The translations under genes were made by a program, and so were the position numbers. A DNA stretch of 64,000 nucleotides from Escherichia coli O127:H6 str. E2348/69 (lineage in GTDB: Bacteria; Pseudomonadota; Gammaproteobacteria; Enterobacterales; Enterobacteriaceae): the NCBI RefSeq assembly GCF_000026545.1, contig NC_011601.1. One strand, written 5' to 3'. Positions 4,569-40,094 of the stretch are shown here, one piece after another (positions within the stretch are counted from its first letter, which is position 1; every line of letters begins with the position of its first letter). The notes under the pieces were generated by a model that ran no database searches, was not told where the DNA came from, and worked only from the letters and a program-made list of their open reading frames with translations.

Positions 4569-6500
4569 ATGAGTTATCAGGTCTTAGCCCGAAAATGGCG
4601 CCCACAAACCTTTGCTGACGTCGTCGGCCAGGAACATGTGCTGACCGCACTGGCGAACGGCTTGTCGTTAGGGCGTATTCATCATGCTTATCTTTTTTCC
4701 GGCACCCGTGGCGTCGGAAAAACCTCTATCGCCCGACTGTTGGCGAAGGGGCTAAACTGCGAAACCGGCATTACCGCGACGCCGTGCGGCGTGTGCGATA
4801 ACTGTCGTGAAATCGAGCAGGGGCGCTTTGTCGATCTGATTGAAATCGACGCCGCCTCGCGCACTAAAGTCGAAGATACCCGCGACCTGCTGGATAACGT
4901 TCAGTACGCTCCGGCGCGTGGTCGTTTCAAAGTTTATCTCATCGACGAAGTGCATATGCTGTCGCGTCACAGCTTTAACGCACTGTTAAAAACCCTTGAA
5001 GAGCCGCCAGAGCACGTTAAGTTTTTGCTGGCGACGACCGATCCGCAGAAATTGCCGGTGACGATTTTGTCACGCTGTCTGCAATTTCATCTCAAGGCGC
5101 TGGATGTCGAGCAAATTCGCCATCAGCTTGAGCACATCCTCAACGAAGAACATATCGCTCACGAGCCGCGGGCGCTGCAATTGTTGGCACGCGCCGCTGA
5201 AGGCAGCCTGCGAGATGCCTTAAGTCTGACCGACCAGGCGATTGCCAGCGGTGACGGCCAGGTTTCAACCCAGGCGGTCAGTGCGATGCTGGGTACGCTT
5301 GACGACGATCAGGCGTTATCGCTGGTTGAAGCGATGGTCGAGGCCAACGGCGAGCGCGTAATGGCGCTAATTAATGAAGCTGCTGCCCGTGGTATCGAGT
5401 GGGAAGCGTTGCTGGTGGAAATGCTCGGTCTGTTGCATCGTATTGCGATGGTACAACTTTCGCCTGCTGCTCTTGGCAACGACATGGCCGCCATTGAGCT
5501 GCGGATGCGTGAACTGGCGCGCACCATACCGCCGACGGATATTCAGCTTTACTATCAGACGCTGTTGATTGGTCGCAAAGAATTACCGTATGCGCCAGAC
5601 CGCCGTATGGGTGTTGAGATGACGCTGCTGCGCGCGCTGGCGTTCCATCCGCGTATGCCTCTGCCTGAGCCAGAAGTGCCACGCCAGTCCTTTGCGCCCG
5701 TTGCGCCAACGGCAGTAATGACGCCAACACAGGTGCCGCCGCAACCGCAATCAGCGCTGCAGCAGGCACCGACTGTACCGCTCCCGGAAACCACCAGCCA
5801 GGTGCTGGCGGCGCGCCAGCAGTTGCAGCGCGTGCAGGGAGCAACCAAAGCAAAAAAGAGTGAACCGGCAGCCGCTACCCGCGCGCGGCCGGTGAATAAC
5901 GCTGCGCTGGAAAGACTGGCTTCGGTCACCGATCGCGTTCAGGCGCGCCCGGTGCCATCGGCGCTGGAAAAAGCGCCAGCCAAAAAAGAAGCGTATCGCT
6001 GGAAGGCGACCACTCCAGTGATGCAGCAAAAAGAAGTGGTCGCCACGCCGAAGGCGCTGAAAAAAGCGCTGGAACATGAAAAAACGCCGGAACTGGCGGC
6101 GAAGCTGGCGGCAGAAGCCATTGAGCGCGACCCGTGGGCGGCTCAGGTGAGTCAACTTTCGCTACCAAAACTGGTCGAACAGGTGGCGTTAAATGCCTGG
6201 AAAGAGGAGAGCGACAACGCAGTATGTCTGCATTTGCGCTCCTCTCAGCGGCATTTGAACAACCGCGGCGCACAGCAAAAACTGGCTGAAGCGTTGAGCA
6301 CGTTAAAAGGTTCAACGGTTGAACTGACTATCGTTGAAGATGATAATCCCGCGGTGCGTACGCCGCTGGAATGGCGTCAGGCGATATACGAAGAAAAACT
6401 TGCGCAGGCGCGCGAGTCCATTATTGCGGATAATAATATTCAGACCCTGCGTCGATTCTTCGATGCGGAGCTGGATGAAGAAAGTATCCGCCCCATTTGA
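4569..6500 (+). CDS. dnaX: DNA polymerase III tau subunit (643 aa); gamma subunit made by -1 frameshift
   Basis: ORF track; AAA+ Walker A GTRGVGKT; slippery A AAA AAG at about 5852-5858 followed by a stem-loop. Confidence 0.95.
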   Translation: MSYQVLARKWRPQTFADVVGQEHVLTALANGLSLGRIHHAYLFSGTRGVGKTSIARLLAKGLNCETGITATPCGVCDNCREIEQGRFVDLIEIDAASRTKVEDTRDLLDNVQYAPARGRFKVYLIDEVHMLSRHSFNALLKTLEEPPEHVKFLLATTDPQKLPVTILSRCLQFHLKALDVEQIRHQLEHILNEEHIAHEPRALQLLARAAEGSLRDALSLTDQAIASGDGQVSTQAVSAMLGTLDDDQALSLVEAMVEANGERVMALINEAAARGIEWEALLVEMLGLLHRIAMVQLSPAALGNDMAAIELRMRELARTIPPTDIQLYYQTLLIGRKELPYAPDRRMGVEMTLLRALAFHPRMPLPEPEVPRQSFAPVAPTAVMTPTQVPPQPQSALQQAPTVPLPETTSQVLAARQQLQRVQGATKAKKSEPAAATRARPVNNAALERLASVTDRVQARPVPSALEKAPAKKEAYRWKATTPVMQQKEVVATPKALKKALEHEKTPELAAKLAAEAIERDPWAAQVSQLSLPKLVEQVALNAWKEESDNAVCLHLRSSQRHLNNRGAQQKLAEALSTLKGSTVELTIVEDDNPAVRTPLEWRQAIYEEKLAQARESIIADNNIQTLRRFFDAELDEESIRPI

Positions 6501-20994: not shown

Positions 20995-23499
20995 TTATTC
21001 CTTTGGTTTAAACCGCAGCAACCGGTTGGCGTTACTCACTACGGTAATCGACGAGAGCGCCATTGCCGCTCCGGCAACCACCGGGTTAAGCAGTGTTCCA
21101 GTGAACGGCCACAAAATACCGGCGGCGACCGGAATACCAATGCTGTTGTAGATAAACGCGCCGAGCAGGTTCTGCTTCATATTGCGCAGCGTTGCGCGGG
21201 AAATCGCGAGCGCATCTGCAACACCCATCAGGCTATGGCGCATCAGGGTAATCGCCGCGGTTTCAATGGCAACATCACTGCCGCCACCCATTGCAATGCC
21301 GACATCCGCCTGAGCCAGCGCTGGCGCGTCGTTAATGCCATCGCCCACCATTGCCACCTGACGTCCTTCACTTTGCAGACGTTTGATCGCTTCGGCTTTA
21401 CCGTCCGGCAGCACCCCGGCTATCACCTCATCAATCCCTGCTTCTTTGGCGATCGCATTGGCGGTGGTCGGGTTATCCCCGGTTAGCATCACCAGGCGAT
21501 ATCCCGCTTTATGCAGGCGTTGCAGCGCCGCCACGCTATCACTACGCAACGGATCGCGTACAGCCAGCAGGGCTACCGCTTTCCCGTCAACCGCCAGCAG
21601 CACAGGCGTTGCCCCTTGCGATGCCTGAGCTGAAATATCTGCTTCAATTGCTTTGGTATTGACCTGTTGGTCATTTAACAACGCCTGATTGCCCAGCAAT
21701 AACGCATGACCTTCAGCTTCACCGCTCACGCCCAGCCCGCGCAATGTGCGGAAACCGTTGACCTGCGGTAGCTGCATATCGCTTGCTTTATCGAGGATAG
21801 CCCGTGCCAGCGGGTGGCTGGAACCTTGCTCCAGCGCTGCCGCCAGACGCAATGCTTGCGCTTCATCAATATCAGCAAATGTTTTTACTGCGACAACCTG
21901 CGGCTTCCCTTCGGTCAGCGTCCCGGTTTTATCGAACACTACGGTGTCGAGCGTACTGGCGCGTTGCAGCGCGTCGGCGTCCCGTACCAGCACGCCAAAC
22001 TCAGCCGCCCGCCCGACGCCCGAAATAATCGACATCGGCGTCGCCAGCCCCAGCGCACACGGACAGGCAATAATCAGCACCGTGGTGGCAATCACCAGGG
22101 TATAGACAATCTGCGGTGCCGGACCAAAGAAATACCAGATTGCCGCACTGATCAGCGCAATCACCACCACTACCGGCACAAATACGGCTGAGATTTTATC
22201 CGCCAGCTGACCGATTTCTGGCTTACTGCTCTGGGCCTGGCGCACCATACGAATAATCCGCGACAGCGTAGTATGGCTGCCAACCGCACTGGCGCGAAAC
22301 AACACGCTACCGTCCTGCACCACTGTCCCGGCATGGACGCTATCGCCTTCGCCTTTTTGCTGCGGTATAGGTTCGCCCGTCAGCATCGCTTCATCCAGCC
22401 ACGCTTCGCCCTGGGTGATCTCACCATCTACCGGTACGCGATCGCCGGTCGTCAGGCGCAGCAACATACCTGGCTGCACTTCCGCCAGCGGCACGCTTTT
22501 TTCACCTTCGTCAGTAACCAGGCGCGCCGTCGGCGGAGTTAAATCGAGTAATTTCTCCAGCGCCTTTGAAGAACGCTGACGTGCGCGCGCTTCCAGCATA
22601 TGACCGAGATTAATCAGACCGATAATCATCGCACTGGCTTCATAGTAAAGATGCCGCGCTTCCATCGGGAACCACTGCGGCCACAGGTTAACGCTCATCG
22701 AATAGAGCCACGCCACACCAGTACCCAGCGCCACCAGCGTATCCATCGTCGCTGCACCGTTCAGCAGGCTTTTCCATGCACTACGGTAAAAATGGCCGCC
22801 GGCGAAAACCATCACTGCCAGGGTTATCAGGCCGATAACCAACCACAGGCTGCGGTTGTCAGCGGTGACCATCATGTTATCGCCGATCATCCCCCAGACC
22901 ATCACCGGGATACCCACCGCCAGTGCGACAATCGCCTGCCAGCGGAAGCGCTTCATCGTAGCGACGGCGGTTTCTTGCTGGCGCTCGCGGCGTTTAGCGT
23001 CATCTTCAATCGCTTCCGCGCCGTAGCCCGCTTTTTCCACCGCCTGCACTAAATCTTGTGGGGAGGCACTGCCCATCACCAGCGCAGTACGCTCCGCCAG
23101 GTTTACCCGTGCCTGAGTGACGCCCGGTACGCTTTGCAGCGCATTTTGTACGCGGGTGACACAGCTGGCGCAGCTCATGCCGCTCAGCAGCAACTGCTGG
23201 CTGTCATCATCATCGGCGGTCGCTGCCGGAAGCGCCTCAGAAACCGCTGTCAGTGCTTCCGACGGGATTGATGACTCCGCCAGCGGTTTAGCCTTTGGGT
23301 GGCTTACAGATGCGTCATAACCCGCTTGTTTGATGGTTTCGATCAGCTGTTCTGCACTGGCAGTCCCGGTAACGTGCGCTTCAGTGACAGACACATCCGC
23401 CTGCTCAACATCCGGGCGCTGTTCGAGACTTTCTTTCACGCGTTTAACGCAGTGACCGCAGGACAGGCCGTCCAGGGTCAGGTCGATAGTTTGTGACAT
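20995..23499 (-). CDS. copA: Cu(I)-exporting P1B-type ATPase CopA, 834 aa
   Basis: ORF track; two N-terminal GxxCxxC metal-binding domains, CPC, DKTGT and GDGxND motifs. Confidence 0.95.
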
Positions 23500-23547
23500 A
23501 AAACACTCCTTTTAAGACAGTTTTGACTGGCTGTGATAAAGGTTAAA

Positions 23548-23570
23548 CCTTCCAGCAAGGGGAAGGTCAA
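23548..23570 (-). promoter_or_regulatory. CueR (MerR-type) operator within the copA promoter
   Basis: Inverted repeat ccttccagcaaggggaagg next to a TTGACC -35 element on the copA strand, consistent with a 19-bp-spacer MerR-type promoter. Confidence 0.65.
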
Positions 23571-26521: not shown

Positions 26522-27252
26522 TTAAGGCTTGCGAAAATAGTCGTCCATTATTTTCGTCAGCTCCGGACGTTCCCCGTCATCATTGATGGCAAAATCCAGA
26601 AAAAAAGCATCTGCTTGCGGCGTTCGGTTTTGCGCCATCAACCGGAAGGTGAGGGGGCCTGACCAGGTTTCGGATGGGCTGATGTGCTTATCAGGGCCGA
26701 AACTCTCCCATGCGTTGGGCGGTAATGTTTTGCACGCGGTGAGTTTTGGTATGTGGTATTGCAGCTCTGTTTTGTGCAGACATTCCCCGCCAGGAAATAC
26801 CAGGGTTTGTTGCTCATCATTAAAATGGGTTGCCGTGCTGAGCACCAGTGTTTTGAGCGGTCGCCCTTCCAGCGCGGCGGCAGTAGCCTTATGGTGTCCG
26901 TCGAGCAGAACGCAGAGATAGGAATCAGGGAGATACCAGGCCAGAGCGCGGGCGATTCCAGTTTTCGAGAGCAGACAAAAACCGGGCGGCTCCCTGTTCA
27001 TCCTCCGCAAAACCGCTGTAGACAAATTCCGCACAGGTAGGGCAATCAGCCTCGGACCAGAAACGTATTAACGGGACATCCTTGCCAGCAGAGCGAATGG
27101 ATAAGACCGTGCGAGTGCGGATCGTAAATCACACATTGACGCAGAAATCCTTTCCCGGACTTCACCGAAAAAATGACGCCCGCAGCGGTATTTTTCAGCA
27201 GACGTACTTCAGGTTTTCGAAAGGGGAAAAAGCATGGCCACTCCTTAGCCAA
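26522..27252 (-). pseudogene. Hypothetical accessory gene of about 240 codons, split by an apparent frameshift near 27046-27068
   Basis: Two adjacent minus-strand ORFs (27046..27252 and 26522..27034) in different frames; the downstream frame stays open up to 27067; no family confidently recognised; stop abuts cueR stop. Confidence 0.45.
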
Positions 27253-27323
27253 AATTTCAGTTCCCTGAACTGTGCCAGAAAATTACGCTGGTGACTATTG
27301 CTCTGGAAATGGAAACGGTGTCC

Positions 27324-27530
27324 TTACCCATTAATCCCCGTTTGCACCGAAAGAATATGCTGCAAACTTTCTACCATTATGCGCCCCGACTGAAATAAGC
27401 CTTCCTGGATTTCGTTGTTAACATTCACAGCGTGAACCAGGGAGGCTAATAACACCACTTGCAAGAAGGCAAAAATAAACGCACCGATAATCATAATATG
27501 CGTCAGGGGGATTTTCCTTTGCTCCTTCAT
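27324..27530 (-). CDS. Small single-pass membrane protein (68 aa), hypothetical
   Basis: ORF track; one hydrophobic helix IIGAFIFAFLQVVLLASLV; start overlaps the stop of the upstream lipoprotein gene by 4 bp. Confidence 0.5.
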   Translation of the reverse strand: MKEQRKIPLTHIMIIGAFIFAFLQVVLLASLVHAVNVNNEIQEGLFQSGRIMVESLQHILSVQTGING

Positions 27531-27949
27531 TTTAAATAACCCACAAACTGGCCTTCTTTCATTAAGGCGACTTTTCCTGTGTGATGATAAACAATGACAT
27601 TATACAGACCCGACTGATAAACAGTAGCATCTTTATTGTCTTCATCAATTACACATAATGAATCATTGAGATAAGCAAAGTTCTTACTGCTCATTCTAAA
27701 GGTCATGCCAAATCCTTTATAAATGGCTTTCTTTGCCGCCTGGGCATGTTGTGCGGCTTCTGCATTTTTAAATGCCTGCGCCTCGGATGCACTTAAAATA
27801 GCCGTCTGACGCTGTTGTTCTGCGAGGTAACAGGTGTCATGGCTGACGCCCTGCGCCTGGCAATCTGCGATGCGGGAAGTGGGTGAACTACAGCCAGCCA
27901 GTAATATAACCGCCAGCAGGGAAAACGATTTAATGGAGCTATTCATCAT
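27527..27949 (-). CDS. Predicted lipoprotein (140 aa), hypothetical
   Basis: ORF track; signal peptide with lipobox LLAGC followed by S at +2; not a K-12 core protein I recognise. Confidence 0.6.
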   Translation of the reverse strand: MMNSSIKSFSLLAVILLAGCSSPTSRIADCQAQGVSHDTCYLAEQQRQTAILSASEAQAFKNAEAAQHAQAAKKAIYKGFGMTFRMSSKNFAYLNDSLCVIDEDNKDATVYQSGLYNVIVYHHTGKVALMKEGQFVGYLK

Positions 27950-28002
27950 TGTTAACCTTAAATAATGTGCGGAAAATTGCGAATAAGAAATTGCTGTTAA
28001 AA

Positions 28003-29019
28003 TTAGAACGAATATCCCACGCCGACACCCGCACCGAAATCAGATTGTGTATCCGCAGAAATACCTGCTTTAAGTACCGTATGCGTTCCGGCATTAAAAG
28101 ATGTTCCGACAGACACCGCAGATTCACCGTTAAAGGTTCCCGCTCCCGCTGAGACCATCATCAAGTCACCGGTTTTCACCTGTGGTTGTGAGGCGATAGC
28201 GATGGCAGATGCAGTTCCCGCATTGGCTTCTTTACGATTGTCCTCAACTTCGTTTTTTAGCGAACTGAAATGGTTATTGAGCGTGTTAATTTGCTGGCTG
28301 TTATCTGCAACCCGTTTTTGGGTGTTGGTTAACTGTTGCTGCGTTTGTGCGGAATCTTGTCTCAGACTTTCAATTTGCTCATGTGCCTGGACAGACTTCT
28401 GCGCCAGACTTTGCATTTGTTTATCGTATTGAGCCCTTTCTTTTTGCTGTTGTGCTGCCACATCGGTTGTCAGTGCATTCATTTTCTGCCCTTGTTCCGT
28501 GGTAGTGCGCTGATTAGCCTCATTTTGAGCCGCCAGCCTGGCATTAATCATCTCCTGATAATGCGCGGTATTTTGCGTATCTCCAGTCGCGGCGAGCGTT
28601 TTTTGTGTGGCTACGATCTGCGCCTGTTGCTCTGTAATTTGCGTTTGCTGGGCATCAGTTACCGTAGACTGTCGGGCGTTGATCATGCTCTGATAACGGG
28701 CGGTTGTCTGTACATCACCTGTAGCGGCAACGGTTTTTTGTCCTGCGTCAGGATCTGTCTGGACAGGGGGAGTCTGAGTGGTATCAGGTGTTTCAGAAGG
28801 GATGTAGTGATGTTCAGTCAAATAGGTATATGCAGCGGGGCTGTTGTCGGTGCGTTCTAAAAAGCGGGTAATCTTCTGCTCAATCTCCGATTGCGACATG
28901 CCCGAGTTAATGGCTGAAAGCTCTGTTGCCGCCGCTTCAATGGTATCACCAGCTAAAACAAAAGGGCTGGATGTTGCTGAAATTATGAGTGCCAGTAAAG
29001 CTACGTTTACAGTTTTCAT
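28003..29019 (-). CDS. Short trimeric-autotransporter-like protein with YadA-type C-terminal membrane anchor (338 aa)
   Basis: ORF track; N-terminal signal peptide, Q/T/A-rich coiled-coil repeats, C-terminus ...GESAVSVGTSFNAG...GAGVGVGYSF resembling the YadA anchor and ending in an aromatic residue. Confidence 0.7.
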   Translation of the reverse strand: MKTVNVALLALIISATSSPFVLAGDTIEAAATELSAINSGMSQSEIEQKITRFLERTDNSPAAYTYLTEHHYIPSETPDTTQTPPVQTDPDAGQKTVAATGDVQTTARYQSMINARQSTVTDAQQTQITEQQAQIVATQKTLAATGDTQNTAHYQEMINARLAAQNEANQRTTTEQGQKMNALTTDVAAQQQKERAQYDKQMQSLAQKSVQAHEQIESLRQDSAQTQQQLTNTQKRVADNSQQINTLNNHFSSLKNEVEDNRKEANAGTASAIAIASQPQVKTGDLMMVSAGAGTFNGESAVSVGTSFNAGTHTVLKAGISADTQSDFGAGVGVGYSF

Positions 29020-29386
29020 TCATTTTCTCTCGATCAAAATAAGTTGCATTAATGTTTCTATAAGAAACAAATAATATTGTTATTAAGAAATAAAATACGT
29101 TGCAATATGATCGAAATCTACGCCGCCATTTGTGTGATGTAAAGCGCATTTTTGTCTGTTGTAAGCGTAAATATCACCAATAAGAAACAAAAAATGTTTC
29201 TTTTATAAATTAAAAAGGAAAACATTTCGTGCTCTTTCAATGTAAAAAAGAGTAAAGACTTGTTTTGATAAGCGAAATAAATTCTGTTTCTGGACTAAAC
29301 GTGAACCGGTTCCTGATGTGTGCTAAAATGCGTTTCTTTGATAAATCTCAATTTTTAAGAGGTTTACGCCAGGCAGGAACATTTAA

Positions 29387-29749
29387 ATGAATGAATTTGA
29401 GAAGATTTTTAATGAAATGAATCTGGACCGGGCATTGCTACCGATCCTTTTTCGTTCGAACCGGTCAACAGTGTGGAAGTATTTAAGCGGCGATAGTACG
29501 GCTCCTGCCTCAGCTATGTCACTGATTATGCTGTTGCAGTTAATCCAGAAACGAAACCCCGATCTATTAGCCGAATGGTTAACGCTTTCTGATTTCACCA
29601 TTCCGCCAGAAGTTTACCTGGACCAGCCTGATTACTGGAAAGGGTGGGTGTATACCCAACACAAGGTCAATAAAAACGTCCTGGAATATCTAAAAAAACA
29701 TTATCCGGATGAAGACCAAAAAAGTATGGGTAAAGGCCGGGAAGAGTAA
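29387..29749 (+). CDS. Putative HTH DNA-binding regulator (120 aa), hypothetical
   Basis: ORF track; HTH-like segment RSNRSTVWKYLSGDSTAP; divergent from the autotransporter-like gene across a 370-bp AT-rich region. Confidence 0.45.
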   Translation: MNEFEKIFNEMNLDRALLPILFRSNRSTVWKYLSGDSTAPASAMSLIMLLQLIQKRNPDLLAEWLTLSDFTIPPEVYLDQPDYWKGWVYTQHKVNKNVLEYLKKHYPDEDQKSMGKGREE

Positions 29750-38289: not shown

Positions 38290-38400
<111 letters not shown>

Positions 38401-38498
38401 CAGTGTGCATTTTGGCAATAAATATGAAACCAACTGTCATGTCGGTTTTTTTAAAGGCCGAAGGTGGTAAACCTTCGGCCTTAGCTACGTTTCCTCAG

Positions 38499-38582
38499 TT
38501 ATTCAATAAATTGACGGATCAGTTCTAGCAGCGCGATTAGCGCCTTAAGAACGATGAGAACTTTATCGAGAAAAGTTTTCAT
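38499..38582 (-). CDS. Putative 27-aa amphipathic micro-protein (MKTFLDKVLIVLKALIALLELIRQFIE)
   Basis: Hand-translated; AAGGGAG Shine-Dalgarno 6 nt upstream of the ATG; followed downstream by a perfect 10-bp-stem hairpin (about 38456-38480). Confidence 0.35.
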   Translation of the reverse strand: MKTFLDKVLIVLKALIALLELIRQFIE

Positions 38583-38656
38583 CCGTTGCTCCCTTAAGGG
38601 AGAAAGACAATCACAGCTTACCCTTACGTTGCCTGTAACTATGATTTTCTTCATGT

Positions 38657-39958
38657 GCTAGATGAGGACTGCCTCTCTCCAAATTAGAGCACCAGAATCA
38701 GCACCACCTGTATCCTGACCAGGACTTAAAAGTACTTTTCCGCACTGCGGTAATCCCTTGAGGCAGTATCACTACTAGCGTCGGGATTGTATCGCCAACA
38801 TAGCTGTTGTGTAAGTTCACAGAGATATTGCAATTGCCTCCGGATAAGTAAGGGGAGATTGCACTATGCAAATGCAGCATCTGATGGTTGGCTATCCTAA
38901 GTACTACCAAACGGCCGATTATGCGTTGAGGCTTTCAGTGATGGCTGATATAGCAACAATGAGAATGAAGGCTCTGCACTTCTGGGATAAACACGGTATT
39001 TCTGCAGCTTCTGAAGCCTTTGGCGTGTCCTGCCGCACGCTTTACTGGTGGCGTCAGTTACTGAACAAGGAAGGACCTGAGGGGCTAATCCCGCACAGTA
39101 AGGCACCTCTGGTGCGACGAAAAAAACACTGGCATCCCGATGTGCTGAAAGAGATTCGACGCCTCAGGACAGAGCTGCCGAACCTCGGTAAAGAGCAGAT
39201 TTTTGTTCGCCTGAAGCCCTGGTGCGAACAGCGCTATCTGGCCTGTCCGAGTGTTTCCACCATCGGCAGAATGATCGCTGCCGCACATGATAAAATGCGG
39301 ATGATACCTGTGCGTCTGGGATCGCGGGGGAAGGCACTGCTTGTCAAAAAGCGGTCTGCCAAACCCCGCAGGCCAAAGCACTACCGCCCGGTAAAGACAG
39401 GTGAGCTCATTGGGATGGACGCCATTGAGCTCAGAATGGGCGAACTGCGTCGCTATGTCATCACCATGATCGACGAATGCAGCAATTACGCGCTGGCGCT
39501 GGCTGTGCCGTCACTCAACAGTGATATCGTCAATCACTTCTTCAGCCGCGCAGCCCGGTTGTTCCCGGTCGGTATCAGCCAGATAATCACAGATAACGGA
39601 AAAGAGTTCCTGGGAAACTTCGACAAAACGCTGCAGGAAGCCGCTATCAAACACCTCTGGACCTATCCCTACACGCCAAAAATGAACGCTATCTGTGAAC
39701 GTTTTAACCGGACGTTAAGAGAGCAGTTTATTGAATTTAATGAGATTTTACTCTTTGAAGATCTGGCGCTATTTAACCAGAAGCTGGCGGAATATCTGGT
39801 GCTGTATAACAGCAAAAGACCCCACAAGGCGCTCGCACTAATGACGCCCGTGGAATATATTTTAAAAGAGAATAAAAATTGCAATATGTGGTGGACCCAT
39901 ACAGCTGTTTGAATATGTAGGCATCCTGACTTATAATTCACTTGCTAGATGAGGACTG
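38657..39958 (+). mobile_element. Putative insertion sequence carrying one DDE transposase gene (IS481-like architecture); ends uncertain
   Basis: Transposase ORF bracketed by a 16-bp direct repeat tgctagatgaggactg at about 38657-38672 and 39943-39958; occupies the position where K-12 has the rhsD element. Confidence 0.45.
38866..39912 (+). CDS. DDE transposase, N-terminal HTH plus integrase-core (rve) domain, 348 aa
   Basis: ORF track; catalytic D (GMDAIE), D (ITDNGKEF) and E (ICERFNRT) with 35-residue D-to-E spacing. Confidence 0.7.
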   Translation: MQMQHLMVGYPKYYQTADYALRLSVMADIATMRMKALHFWDKHGISAASEAFGVSCRTLYWWRQLLNKEGPEGLIPHSKAPLVRRKKHWHPDVLKEIRRLRTELPNLGKEQIFVRLKPWCEQRYLACPSVSTIGRMIAAAHDKMRMIPVRLGSRGKALLVKKRSAKPRRPKHYRPVKTGELIGMDAIELRMGELRRYVITMIDECSNYALALAVPSLNSDIVNHFFSRAARLFPVGISQIITDNGKEFLGNFDKTLQEAAIKHLWTYPYTPKMNAICERFNRTLREQFIEFNEILLFEDLALFNQKLAEYLVLYNSKRPHKALALMTPVEYILKENKNCNMWWTHTAV

Positions 39959-40094
39959 TTTCATTTCTGCCCGGAACCACCAAGTCTTGGGCGGAAAAAA
40001 TAAAAAAACCGACTGTCATGTCGGTTTTTTTATATCTGTATTCTGGTGCAACCATTCTGTTCTCACGACAATCGCCGTTTCAGAATACCGCCCA

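Follow-up and report, generated by a model that had tools for sequence, protein, structure and literature searches.

Frameshifting in copA of Escherichia coli K-12 reportedly gives rise to a small protein, CopA(Z), as described by Meydan et al. 2017 (Mol Cell 65:207) and Drees et al. 2017 (Mol Microbiol 106:635). The K-12 annotation carries the corresponding joined CDS (YP_009518752.1, 511168-511379) as a 'soluble Cu(+) chaperone'. In the later literature, these two studies are credited with having shown the K-12 frameshift experimentally (PMC9548414, PMC7558416, PMC6771820), and a ribosome-profiling drop-off at the site is reported along with independent confirmation (PMC9548414). The shift is reported to be efficient in K-12, its frequency is listed as ~0.5 (PMC9375231), the nascent CopA peptide also contributes to stimulating the shift in K-12 (PMC7558416), and CopA(Z) helps cells survive toxic copper (PMC7558416, PMC6771820, PMC9375231). 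The copA frameshift is also covered in PMC10861913, where copA is one of only three E. coli chromosomal frameshift genes outside mobile elements, the others being dnaX and prfB.

We analysed a 64,000-nt stretch (the window) of the chromosome of E. coli O127:H6 str. E2348/69 (NC_011601.1), in which copA lies in the locus order glsA-copA-ybaQ, as in K-12, and encodes a P1B-type ATPase that exports Cu(I); its two N-terminal HMA domains precede the E1-E2_ATPase and Hydrolase/HAD domains (Pfam matches). This strain, a phylogroup B2 EPEC, has the K-12 cassette in the same gene and locus; the heptamer, -1 stop, spacer and both stems are identical, and from codon 39 through codon 96 the copA genes of E2348/69 and K-12 MG1655 agree at every nucleotide. 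The predicted small products differ at residue 38 (Ile in K-12, Val in E2348/69), and two further differences upstream are synonymous. We regard the site as almost certainly the E. coli copA cassette for programmed -1 ribosomal frameshifting (PRF) (Table 1). The copA frameshift is already known, and our analysis confirms it rather than discovering it. That E2348/69 itself frameshifts here we infer from the identity of its cassette sequence to that of K-12.

Table 1. Features of the copA frameshift locus in the E2348/69 window (position 1 is the first nucleotide of the window)
Feature	Position	Strand	Evidence
copA CDS, 0 frame, 834 aa	20995..23499	-	ORF list, Pfam, RefSeq annotation
CopA(Z) coding region (putative), 212 nt	23288..23499	-	translations; layout as K-12 joined CDS
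CGHC (CxxC) copper-binding motif, first HMA domain, C14-G-H-C17	23449..23460	-	translation and HMA match
copA promoter region (context)	23540..23570	-	sequence and inverted repeat
Slippery heptamer C_CCA_AAG	23293..23299	-	sequence, in frame, species conservation
UAA stop, -1 frame, one codon past heptamer	23288..23290	-	translation; same position in 78 species
Predicted pseudoknot S1, 5' arm CCGCUGgCG	23278..23286	-	inverted repeat, RNAalifold consensus, pair counts
Predicted pseudoknot S1, 3' arm UGaCAGCGG	23244..23252	-	inverted repeat, RNAalifold consensus, pair counts
Predicted pseudoknot S2, 5' arm GUCGGAAGC, between the S1 arms	23255..23263	-	inverted repeat, MFE/centroid helix, pair counts
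Predicted pseudoknot S2, 3' arm GCUUCCGGC, 3' end of cassette	23225..23233	-	MFE/centroid helix, pair counts, inverted repeat

The region ahead of copA has a -35 element TTGACC and a dyad ACCTTCC-N7-GGAAGGT at 23567-23547, which is presumably the operator for CueR in a long-spacer promoter of the MerR type. A consensus promoter scan restricted to spacers of 16-18 nt found nothing for copA, and this miss does not mean that the promoter is absent, because a long-spacer MerR-type promoter falls outside the spacer range that the scan accepts. The cueR gene is encoded close to copA in the window.

The region 23299-23291 reads CCCAAAGGC on the minus strand and GCCTTTGGG on the plus strand (23291-23299), and a preliminary description of this DNA made from the sequence had both the position and the letters right, as well as the naming of the site as C CCA AAG-type. 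It had also given codons 69-71 as CCC AAA GGC; these letters are present, but they are the -1 frame reading and the numbering is off by one, the 0 frame being CAC CCA AAG GCU, that is, H67 (CAC, 23301-23299), P68 (CCA, 23298-23296), K69 (AAG, 23295-23293) and A70 (GCU, 23292-23290). The heptamer thus runs from the third base of codon 67 through codon 69, in the 0 frame, and the -1 frame from the same point reads CCC AAA GGC UAA. CopA(Z) would be read in the 0 frame over codons 1-69 (23499-23293) from an ATG at 23499; after a -1 slip G23293 would be read again, followed by GGC (Gly70) and UAA, for a product of 70 aa with the C-terminus ...SVSHPKG. This product comprises a single complete HMA domain (PF00403, residues 8-62, E = 8.4e-14, 52.1 bits against a cut-off of 24.8) and still has the CGHC motif at codons 14-17, the role of CxxC being established for HMA and CopZ proteins (PMC9470648). 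The truncated protein with the first metal-binding domain that had been proposed in the preliminary description agrees with this reading, as does the near-immediate stop, here one Gly and then UAA, in a cassette that is the same as that of K-12.

The bare heptamer occurs five times in the window against 9.35 copies expected, so the motif alone carries no information. C_CCA_AAG is the only in-frame X_XXY_YYZ heptamer anywhere in copA, and among the ~20,000 codons of window ORFs of at least 150 aa there are only two in-frame X_XXA_AAG sites, the copA site and the dnaX frameshift site, each with a -1 stop one codon later. Taken together, the heptamer, its frame, the stop and their conservation are not due to chance.

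Of 5422 E. coli genomes, 5343 have the 81-nt cassette without a single difference, and only 2603 reach an identity of 99% or more over the 501 nt around it; the cassette is ordinary for the species and fully intact in E2348/69. Across the order, 78 of 79 Enterobacterales species have an in-frame C_CCA_AAR (CCCAAAG or CCCAAAA), followed at a distance of exactly one codon by a stop in the -1 frame. This stop, UAA or UGA, is at the same position in all 78 heptamer-bearing species, while the 0-frame codons that overlap it vary (A/S/T/P/V; K/E/D/N). Pairwise synonymous diversity is 0.18-0.27 over codons 64-96 vs 0.50 gene-wide, falling to 0.00-0.08 at P72, S80, T84, A85, L90 and P91. This trough, which ends at about codon 92-96, is unique, as all other nine-codon windows within codons 1-357 have values of at least 0.36. 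The residues upstream of the heptamer are conserved too, yet they are also part of the HMA fold.

A spacer of 6 nt (GCUAAA) separates the heptamer from the first of two stems that are predicted to form an H-type pseudoknot with covariation support. We derived the pairs of both stems from sequence and covariation, independently of the published pseudoknot model. The region contains two crossing perfect inverted repeats, AAACCGCUG/CAGCGGUUU and CGGAAGC/GCUUCCG. S1 would pair 23286-23278 with 23252-23244, with an internal G.A mismatch opposite G23280 (G.A or A.A in 61 of 77 sequences), and S2 would pair 23263-23255 with 23233-23225, a helix present in both the MFE and centroid folds. RNAalifold recovered S1 independently. 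Over 77 sequences, 90.2% of cells in S1 and S2 pair vs 14-51% when the partners are slid; double-sided changes occur in 11 of the 18 pairs overall (7 of 9 in S2), and none of 500 shuffles reached any of the pairing measures. A C-G to U-A double change in S1 of Pantoea keeps the pairing CCGUUG:CAACGG at the cost of an Ala (GCG) to Thr (ACG) replacement. Each stem folded alone with ViennaRNA has -8.3 kcal/mol (S1) and -14.2 kcal/mol (S2). For 100 nt folded without crossing pairs, the MFE is unremarkable (z = -1.01); this is expected of a program that scores no pseudoknot, and uninformative, since the crossing stems cannot be scored together. The downstream pseudoknot and the conservation of the slippery sequence, to which the preliminary description had pointed as checks on its proposal, are thus both borne out, the latter among the E. 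coli genomes and Enterobacterales species counted above.

We envisage that ribosomes would initiate at the AUG at 23499 and translate the first HMA domain, until tRNA-Pro on CCA (codon 68) occupied the P site and tRNA-Lys on AAG (codon 69) the A site. The mRNA entry channel would then meet S1 of the H-type pseudoknot, 6 nt downstream, and its resistance to unwinding would let both tRNAs slip back by one base, from CCA to CCC and from AAG to AAA. Shifted ribosomes would add Gly (GGC) and stop at the UAA (23290-23288), setting free CopA(Z), a soluble HMA protein of 70 residues, which would act as a CopZ-type Cu(I) chaperone, and ribosomes that did not shift would melt the pseudoknot and go on to make the 834-residue pump.

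Much of the nucleotide conservation could in principle be explained, without any recoding, by constraint on the peptide that links the two HMA domains (H-P-K...P-L...P-S-E-A-L-T-A...L-P-A), as the amino acids P68, K69, P72, L73 and P91 are 99-100% conserved. We consider this highly improbable: the synonymous sites are frozen as well, to the near-zero values at six codons given above against the gene-wide 0.50; Pantoea keeps its base pairs through the Ala to Thr change (GCG to ACG opposite CUG to UUG); the -1 stop is fixed in 78 species while the 0-frame codons over it vary; and experiments have documented frameshifting in K-12, whose sequence here is identical. Transcriptional slippage, with RNA polymerase slipping at CCC or AAA, would give the same truncated protein as ribosomal slippage, and we give it next to no credence. 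The homopolymer runs here are just 3 nt; known transcriptional slippage sites are runs of ~6-9 or more A or T. The conserved traits, namely the X_XXY_YYZ frame, the 6-nt spacer and the pseudoknot, are those of ribosomal PRF.

Two further explanations accept the small product and differ on its origin or its use. The main source of the small HMA protein might be a distinct, shortened copA transcript whose 3' end, made by termination or processing, lies near the pseudoknot, with the frameshift minor or incidental; a separate short transcript is reported by Drees et al. 2017, which is cited for two copA mRNA species (PMC9217107), and in principle RNA polymerase could pause at the stable structure at 23286-23225, or a 3' end could be protected by it. 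Against this, a terminator scan of the copA strand past the pseudoknot found no intrinsic terminator (stem and U-run), though RNA processing could still produce such an end, and a stopless mRNA would yield a tmRNA-tagged, degraded product unless ribosomes shifted to the UAA, so that the conserved -1 stop argues for the shift as the selected event. Frameshifting is also reported by Drees et al. 2017, and ribosome profiling has a drop-off at the site (PMC9548414). We therefore think this explanation unlikely as the main source, although a truncated transcript and PRF are not mutually exclusive routes, and PRF may be one of several routes to the small protein. It is also conceivable, but in our estimation quite improbable, that the frameshift is a fixed translational attenuator that lowers full-length CopA, the 70-residue peptide having no role of its own. 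Efficient PRF into an immediate stop necessarily cuts downstream translation, and a frequency of ~0.5 is listed (PMC9375231). However, the shift falls precisely where a complete, foldable HMA domain with its CxxC motif ends; in species whose CopA has three HMA domains it likewise coincides with a domain boundary, the one that follows the second domain; and CopA(Z) is reported to aid survival in toxic copper (PMC7558416, PMC6771820, PMC9375231).

These three-HMA lineages, which include Serratia, Yersinia, Dickeya, Pectobacterium, Brenneria, Xenorhabdus, Edwardsiella, Hafnia, Budvicia and Morganella, have the cassette after the second domain and retain in it the heptamer, as CCCAAAA, along with the -1 stop and the two stems (S1 93% paired, S2 80% paired). 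We tentatively suggest, with somewhat less than even confidence, that the cassette is an ancient, order-wide Enterobacterales element and that three-HMA species would release a tandem two-HMA chaperone of ~139 residues. If true, this would make two-domain chaperones a testable prediction for Yersinia, Serratia and plant pathogens. This placement of the cassette is the only mildly new point of our analysis; no description of a two-HMA frameshift product was found in the copA literature searched, and the primary paper (Meydan et al. 2017) may already mention it.

As a programmed frameshift, copA is a textbook case of recoding, with one gene giving a membrane copper pump and a soluble chaperone, and an RNA pseudoknot that would set their ratio. 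The K-12 annotation includes the chaperone CDS and the E2348/69 RefSeq annotation lacks it; this omission arises because the element has no Rfam or annotation model. For the copA element no Rfam family came up, whether the region was searched at permissive E-values or the whole window at gathering thresholds; the matches to it were noise only. By implication most PGAP-annotated genomes omit CopA(Z) likewise, and the Enterobacterales cassette alignment from this analysis could seed an annotation model.

Within the same window, dnaX (5833-5897) likewise has a chromosomal -1 PRF site, an X_XXA_AAG heptamer read by tRNA-Lys, and as in copA its -1 stop one codon later gives a truncated functional protein. 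The two differ in that the dnaX heptamer is A_AAA_AAG, whereas copA combines C_CCA_AAG with a predicted pseudoknot. The stimulators in dnaX are an upstream Shine-Dalgarno-like element and a downstream simple stem-loop. In addition, dnaX has an Rfam family and a PGAP mark, and the copA element has neither. At the protein level, the stand-alone CopZ/Atx1-type chaperones such as copZ of Enterococcus hirae and Bacillus subtilis are also HMA proteins of ~70 residues with a ferredoxin-like fold and a CxxC (PMC7558416, PMC9470648); CopZ, however, has its own gene, whereas CopA(Z) would be the pump's own first domain, set free through recoding. A slippery site and pseudoknot were claimed in the same 2017 paper for human ATP7B, an ortholog of copA. 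The ATP7B frameshift claim was not reproduced, and the ATP7B site is without synonymous-site conservation (PMC9548414). The bacterial copA site, in contrast, has strong synonymous suppression and covariation, and our comparative data thus provide independent evolutionary support for it, of the kind found lacking for the disputed human site.

A 501-nt query around the copA site was 100% identical to NZ_CP059840.2, and the window is chromosome of E. coli E2348/69. The CopA encoded there has, by Pfam, two HMA domains followed by E1-E2 ATPase and HAD hydrolase domains. The preliminary description had placed a programmed -1 frameshift site in this gene; its coordinates and plus-strand string were exact (minus strand 23299-23291 is CCCAAAGGC), and its reading of codons 69-71 as CCC AAA GGC was wrong, as this is the -1 reading. 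Counting from the 23499 AUG, the 0 frame reads H67 CAC, P68 CCA (23298-23296), K69 AAG (23295-23293) and A70 GCU, and with frame and numbering thus corrected the site itself was confirmed. Translation from 23299 gave P K G and then the anticipated stop (UAA, 23290-23288). With C_CCA_AAG followed one codon later by a -1 stop, a -1 slip would therefore give a 70-residue protein ending ...SVSHPKG, which comprises one whole HMA domain (PF00403, E = 8.4e-14) with the C14-G-H-C17 motif.

The downstream region contains two crossing perfect inverted repeats, AAACCGCUG/CAGCGGUUU and CGGAAGC/GCUUCCG, and, guided by the comparative alignment, we extended these to delimit stems S1 and S2 of an H-type pseudoknot, the structure that the preliminary description had expected, whose two crossing helices are supported by covariation. 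The spacer from heptamer to S1 measures 6 nt, and the loops of the pseudoknot 14, 2 and 10 nt. The stems evaluated singly scored -8.3 (S1) and -14.2 kcal/mol (S2); nested MFE folding (z = -1.01) was uninformative for this element. Escherichia S1 can lengthen outward by three A-U pairs (AAACCGCUG:CAGCGGUUU, 23281-23289 / 23241-23249, minus strand), and because these pairs are missing from most other genera the extension probably lies outside the conserved core. Such lengthening would sequester both A's of the -1 UAA and reduce the spacer to 3 nt.

Coordinates of features in the window
Feature	Position	Strand	Remarks
copA	20995-23499	-	834 aa
S1	23286-23278 : 23252-23244	-	CCGCUGgCG : UGaCAGCGG; one internal G.A mismatch
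S2	23263-23255 : 23233-23225	-	GUCGGAAGC : GCUUCCGGC
dnaX frameshift element	5833-5897	+	inside dnaX 4569-6500 (+); Rfam RF00382, 96.8 bits
ES036 sRNA match	38319-38361		
dinQ-like type I toxin gene	38499-38582	-	
IS481-family transposase	38866-39912	+	between dinQ-like gene and AgrB match
AgrB antisense RNA match	39945-40033	+	Rfam

Codons 39-96 are identical to those of K-12 MG1655, with two synonymous differences and I38V upstream of codon 39. The slippery sequence proved conserved at both scales: the 81-nt cassette (23305-23225) was identical in 5343 of 5422 complete E. coli genomes, with 99% identity or more across the surrounding 501 nt in only 2603, and among 79 Enterobacterales copA loci (one genome per species, 49-99% identity over the N-terminal 211 aa) 78 had an in-frame C_CCA_AAR and then a -1 stop exactly one codon on. 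The one E. coli variant inspected, from strain GN4738, differed solely at the terminal G.U pair of S1. CCCAAAG occurs in genera including Citrobacter, Enterobacter, Pantoea and Erwinia, and CCCAAAA in genera including Yersinia, Serratia, Pectobacterium, Dickeya, Xenorhabdus, Proteus, Morganella, Hafnia, Edwardsiella and Budvicia. Heptamer and pseudoknot were absent from just one of the 79 species, Moellerella wisconsensis (locus L073, ~1400-2300), in whose copA an HMA domain is duplicated exactly in tandem (LSGLHCMKCAAKTQTALLAVEGVISADVDTHSAKVYGSATAETLIAAVEQLGYQA, twice). The copA of Erwinia persicina CFBP8797 (L062, 1713-1812 and downstream) appears to be a pseudogene: a 0-frame TAA lies ten codons past its heptamer, and the ATPase portion shows a large internal deletion or a change of frame; its first HMA domain and cassette are intact, with a compensatory C-G to A-U change at the outermost S1 pair.

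In a MAFFT alignment of 77 distinct cassettes, pseudoknot pairing was found in 90.2% of cells, versus 14-51% with the partners slid 1-3 columns; two-sided changes occurred at 11 of 18 pairs, and none of 500 shuffles reached any of five covariation measures. Pantoea S1 (CCGUUG:CAACGG) exchanges C-G for U-A at the cost of Ala (GCG) to Thr (ACG), and S2 varies from GGAAGC:GCUUCC to GGAGUC:GACUCC and GGAAU:AUUCC. S1 was also recovered independently, with the same pairs, by RNAalifold, a program that does not model crossing helices. The seventh S1 position (alignment columns 20/74; window 23280/23250) is a purine-purine mismatch (G.A, A.A, G.G or A.G) in 61 of the 77 sequences and A-U, G-C, U-A or C-G in the other 16; a mismatch kept in the stem first met by the ribosome may tune unwinding. 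In a codon alignment of 76 sequences, synonymous pair diversity was 0.50 gene-wide and 0.18-0.27 in every 9-codon window across codons 64-96, no other such window in codons 1-357 falling under 0.36. This trough, in which stem codons P72 CCG, S80 UCG, T84 ACA and A85 GCG (0.00 each) and P91 CCG (0.08) are frozen, is characteristic of an RNA element embedded in coding sequence.

Nineteen of the 77 cassettes belong to copA genes encoding three HMA domains (L048, L052, L056-L061, L064, L066, L068, L069, L071, L072, L074, L075, L077, L078 and L082; genera Serratia, Yersinia, Dickeya, Pectobacterium, Brenneria, Xenorhabdus, Edwardsiella, Hafnia, Budvicia and Morganella). There the cassette lies after the second domain, with the heptamer at codons 132-139, and retains CCCAAAA, the -1 stop and both stems (S1 93%, S2 80% paired), so that the product predicted there would contain, by Pfam, two HMA domains in ~139 aa. 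We found no description of this two-HMA arrangement in the literature compared, Meydan et al. 2017 itself being outside that comparison.

We are highly confident that classical simultaneous-slippage -1 frameshifting on C_CCA_AAG, which would yield the 70-residue HMA protein, best explains the site, and the interpretation in the preliminary description is supported. That protein-level constraint alone explains the conservation is most improbable: as a sole cause it is ruled out by the frozen synonymous sites and contradicted by the covariation, and the 0-frame residues overlapping the -1 stop vary among species. A truncated transcript is an unlikely main source of the small protein; it would not exclude frameshifting, but no intrinsic terminator was found on the copA strand after the pseudoknot, and conservation of the -1 stop speaks for the shift. 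We give still less credence to a frameshift that merely attenuates CopA and makes a functionless product, as the position of the site coincides in every case with an HMA domain boundary, and transcriptional slippage is barely credible with homopolymer runs of just 3 nt.

Two sources (PMC9548414; PMC5009743) credit the discovery of copA frameshifting from ribosome-profiling data, and its demonstration, to Meydan et al. 2017 and independent confirmation to Drees et al. 2017. The CopA(Z) product protects against copper (PMC6771820; PMC9375231), the pseudoknot has been employed in single-molecule studies (PMC6182138), and the parallel claim about ATP7B in humans was not reproduced (PMC9548414). 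The feature is already known, and ours is a routine confirmation for E2348/69.

Elsewhere in the window, ~3.2 kb between cueR and ybbJ (~26522-29749) hold a YadA C-terminal-domain protein, three hypothetical ORFs and one frameshifted ORF; this is probably a strain-specific islet, because cueR and ybbJ are adjacent in K-12. A frameshifted ORF fragment also lies between cueR and ybaT. The region 38319-40033, between mnmH and ybbP, resembles a toxin-antitoxin locus of the dinQ/agrB type that an insertion sequence has interrupted.

K-12 copA carries an additional, joined CDS (YP_009518752.1, "soluble Cu(+) chaperone", 511168-511379, 212 nt) of the same layout as E2348/69 23499-23288, where PGAP/RefSeq annotates only full-length CopA, with no CopA(Z) CDS at 23288-23499 (-), yet flags the frameshifting element of DnaX. 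The copA element is not represented by a family in Rfam 15; our alignment could seed one. The bare heptamer is not enriched in the window (5 copies versus 9.35 expected), and C_CCA_AAG is the sole in-frame X_XXY_YYZ heptamer of copA. Among 40 such in-frame heptamers in window ORFs of at least 150 aa (~20,000 codons), just two are X_XXA_AAG, each with a -1 stop one codon after: the copA site and, ~17 kb away, A_AAA_AAG at codon 429 of dnaX, which like copA is an established, classical chromosomal -1 frameshift site of E. coli.
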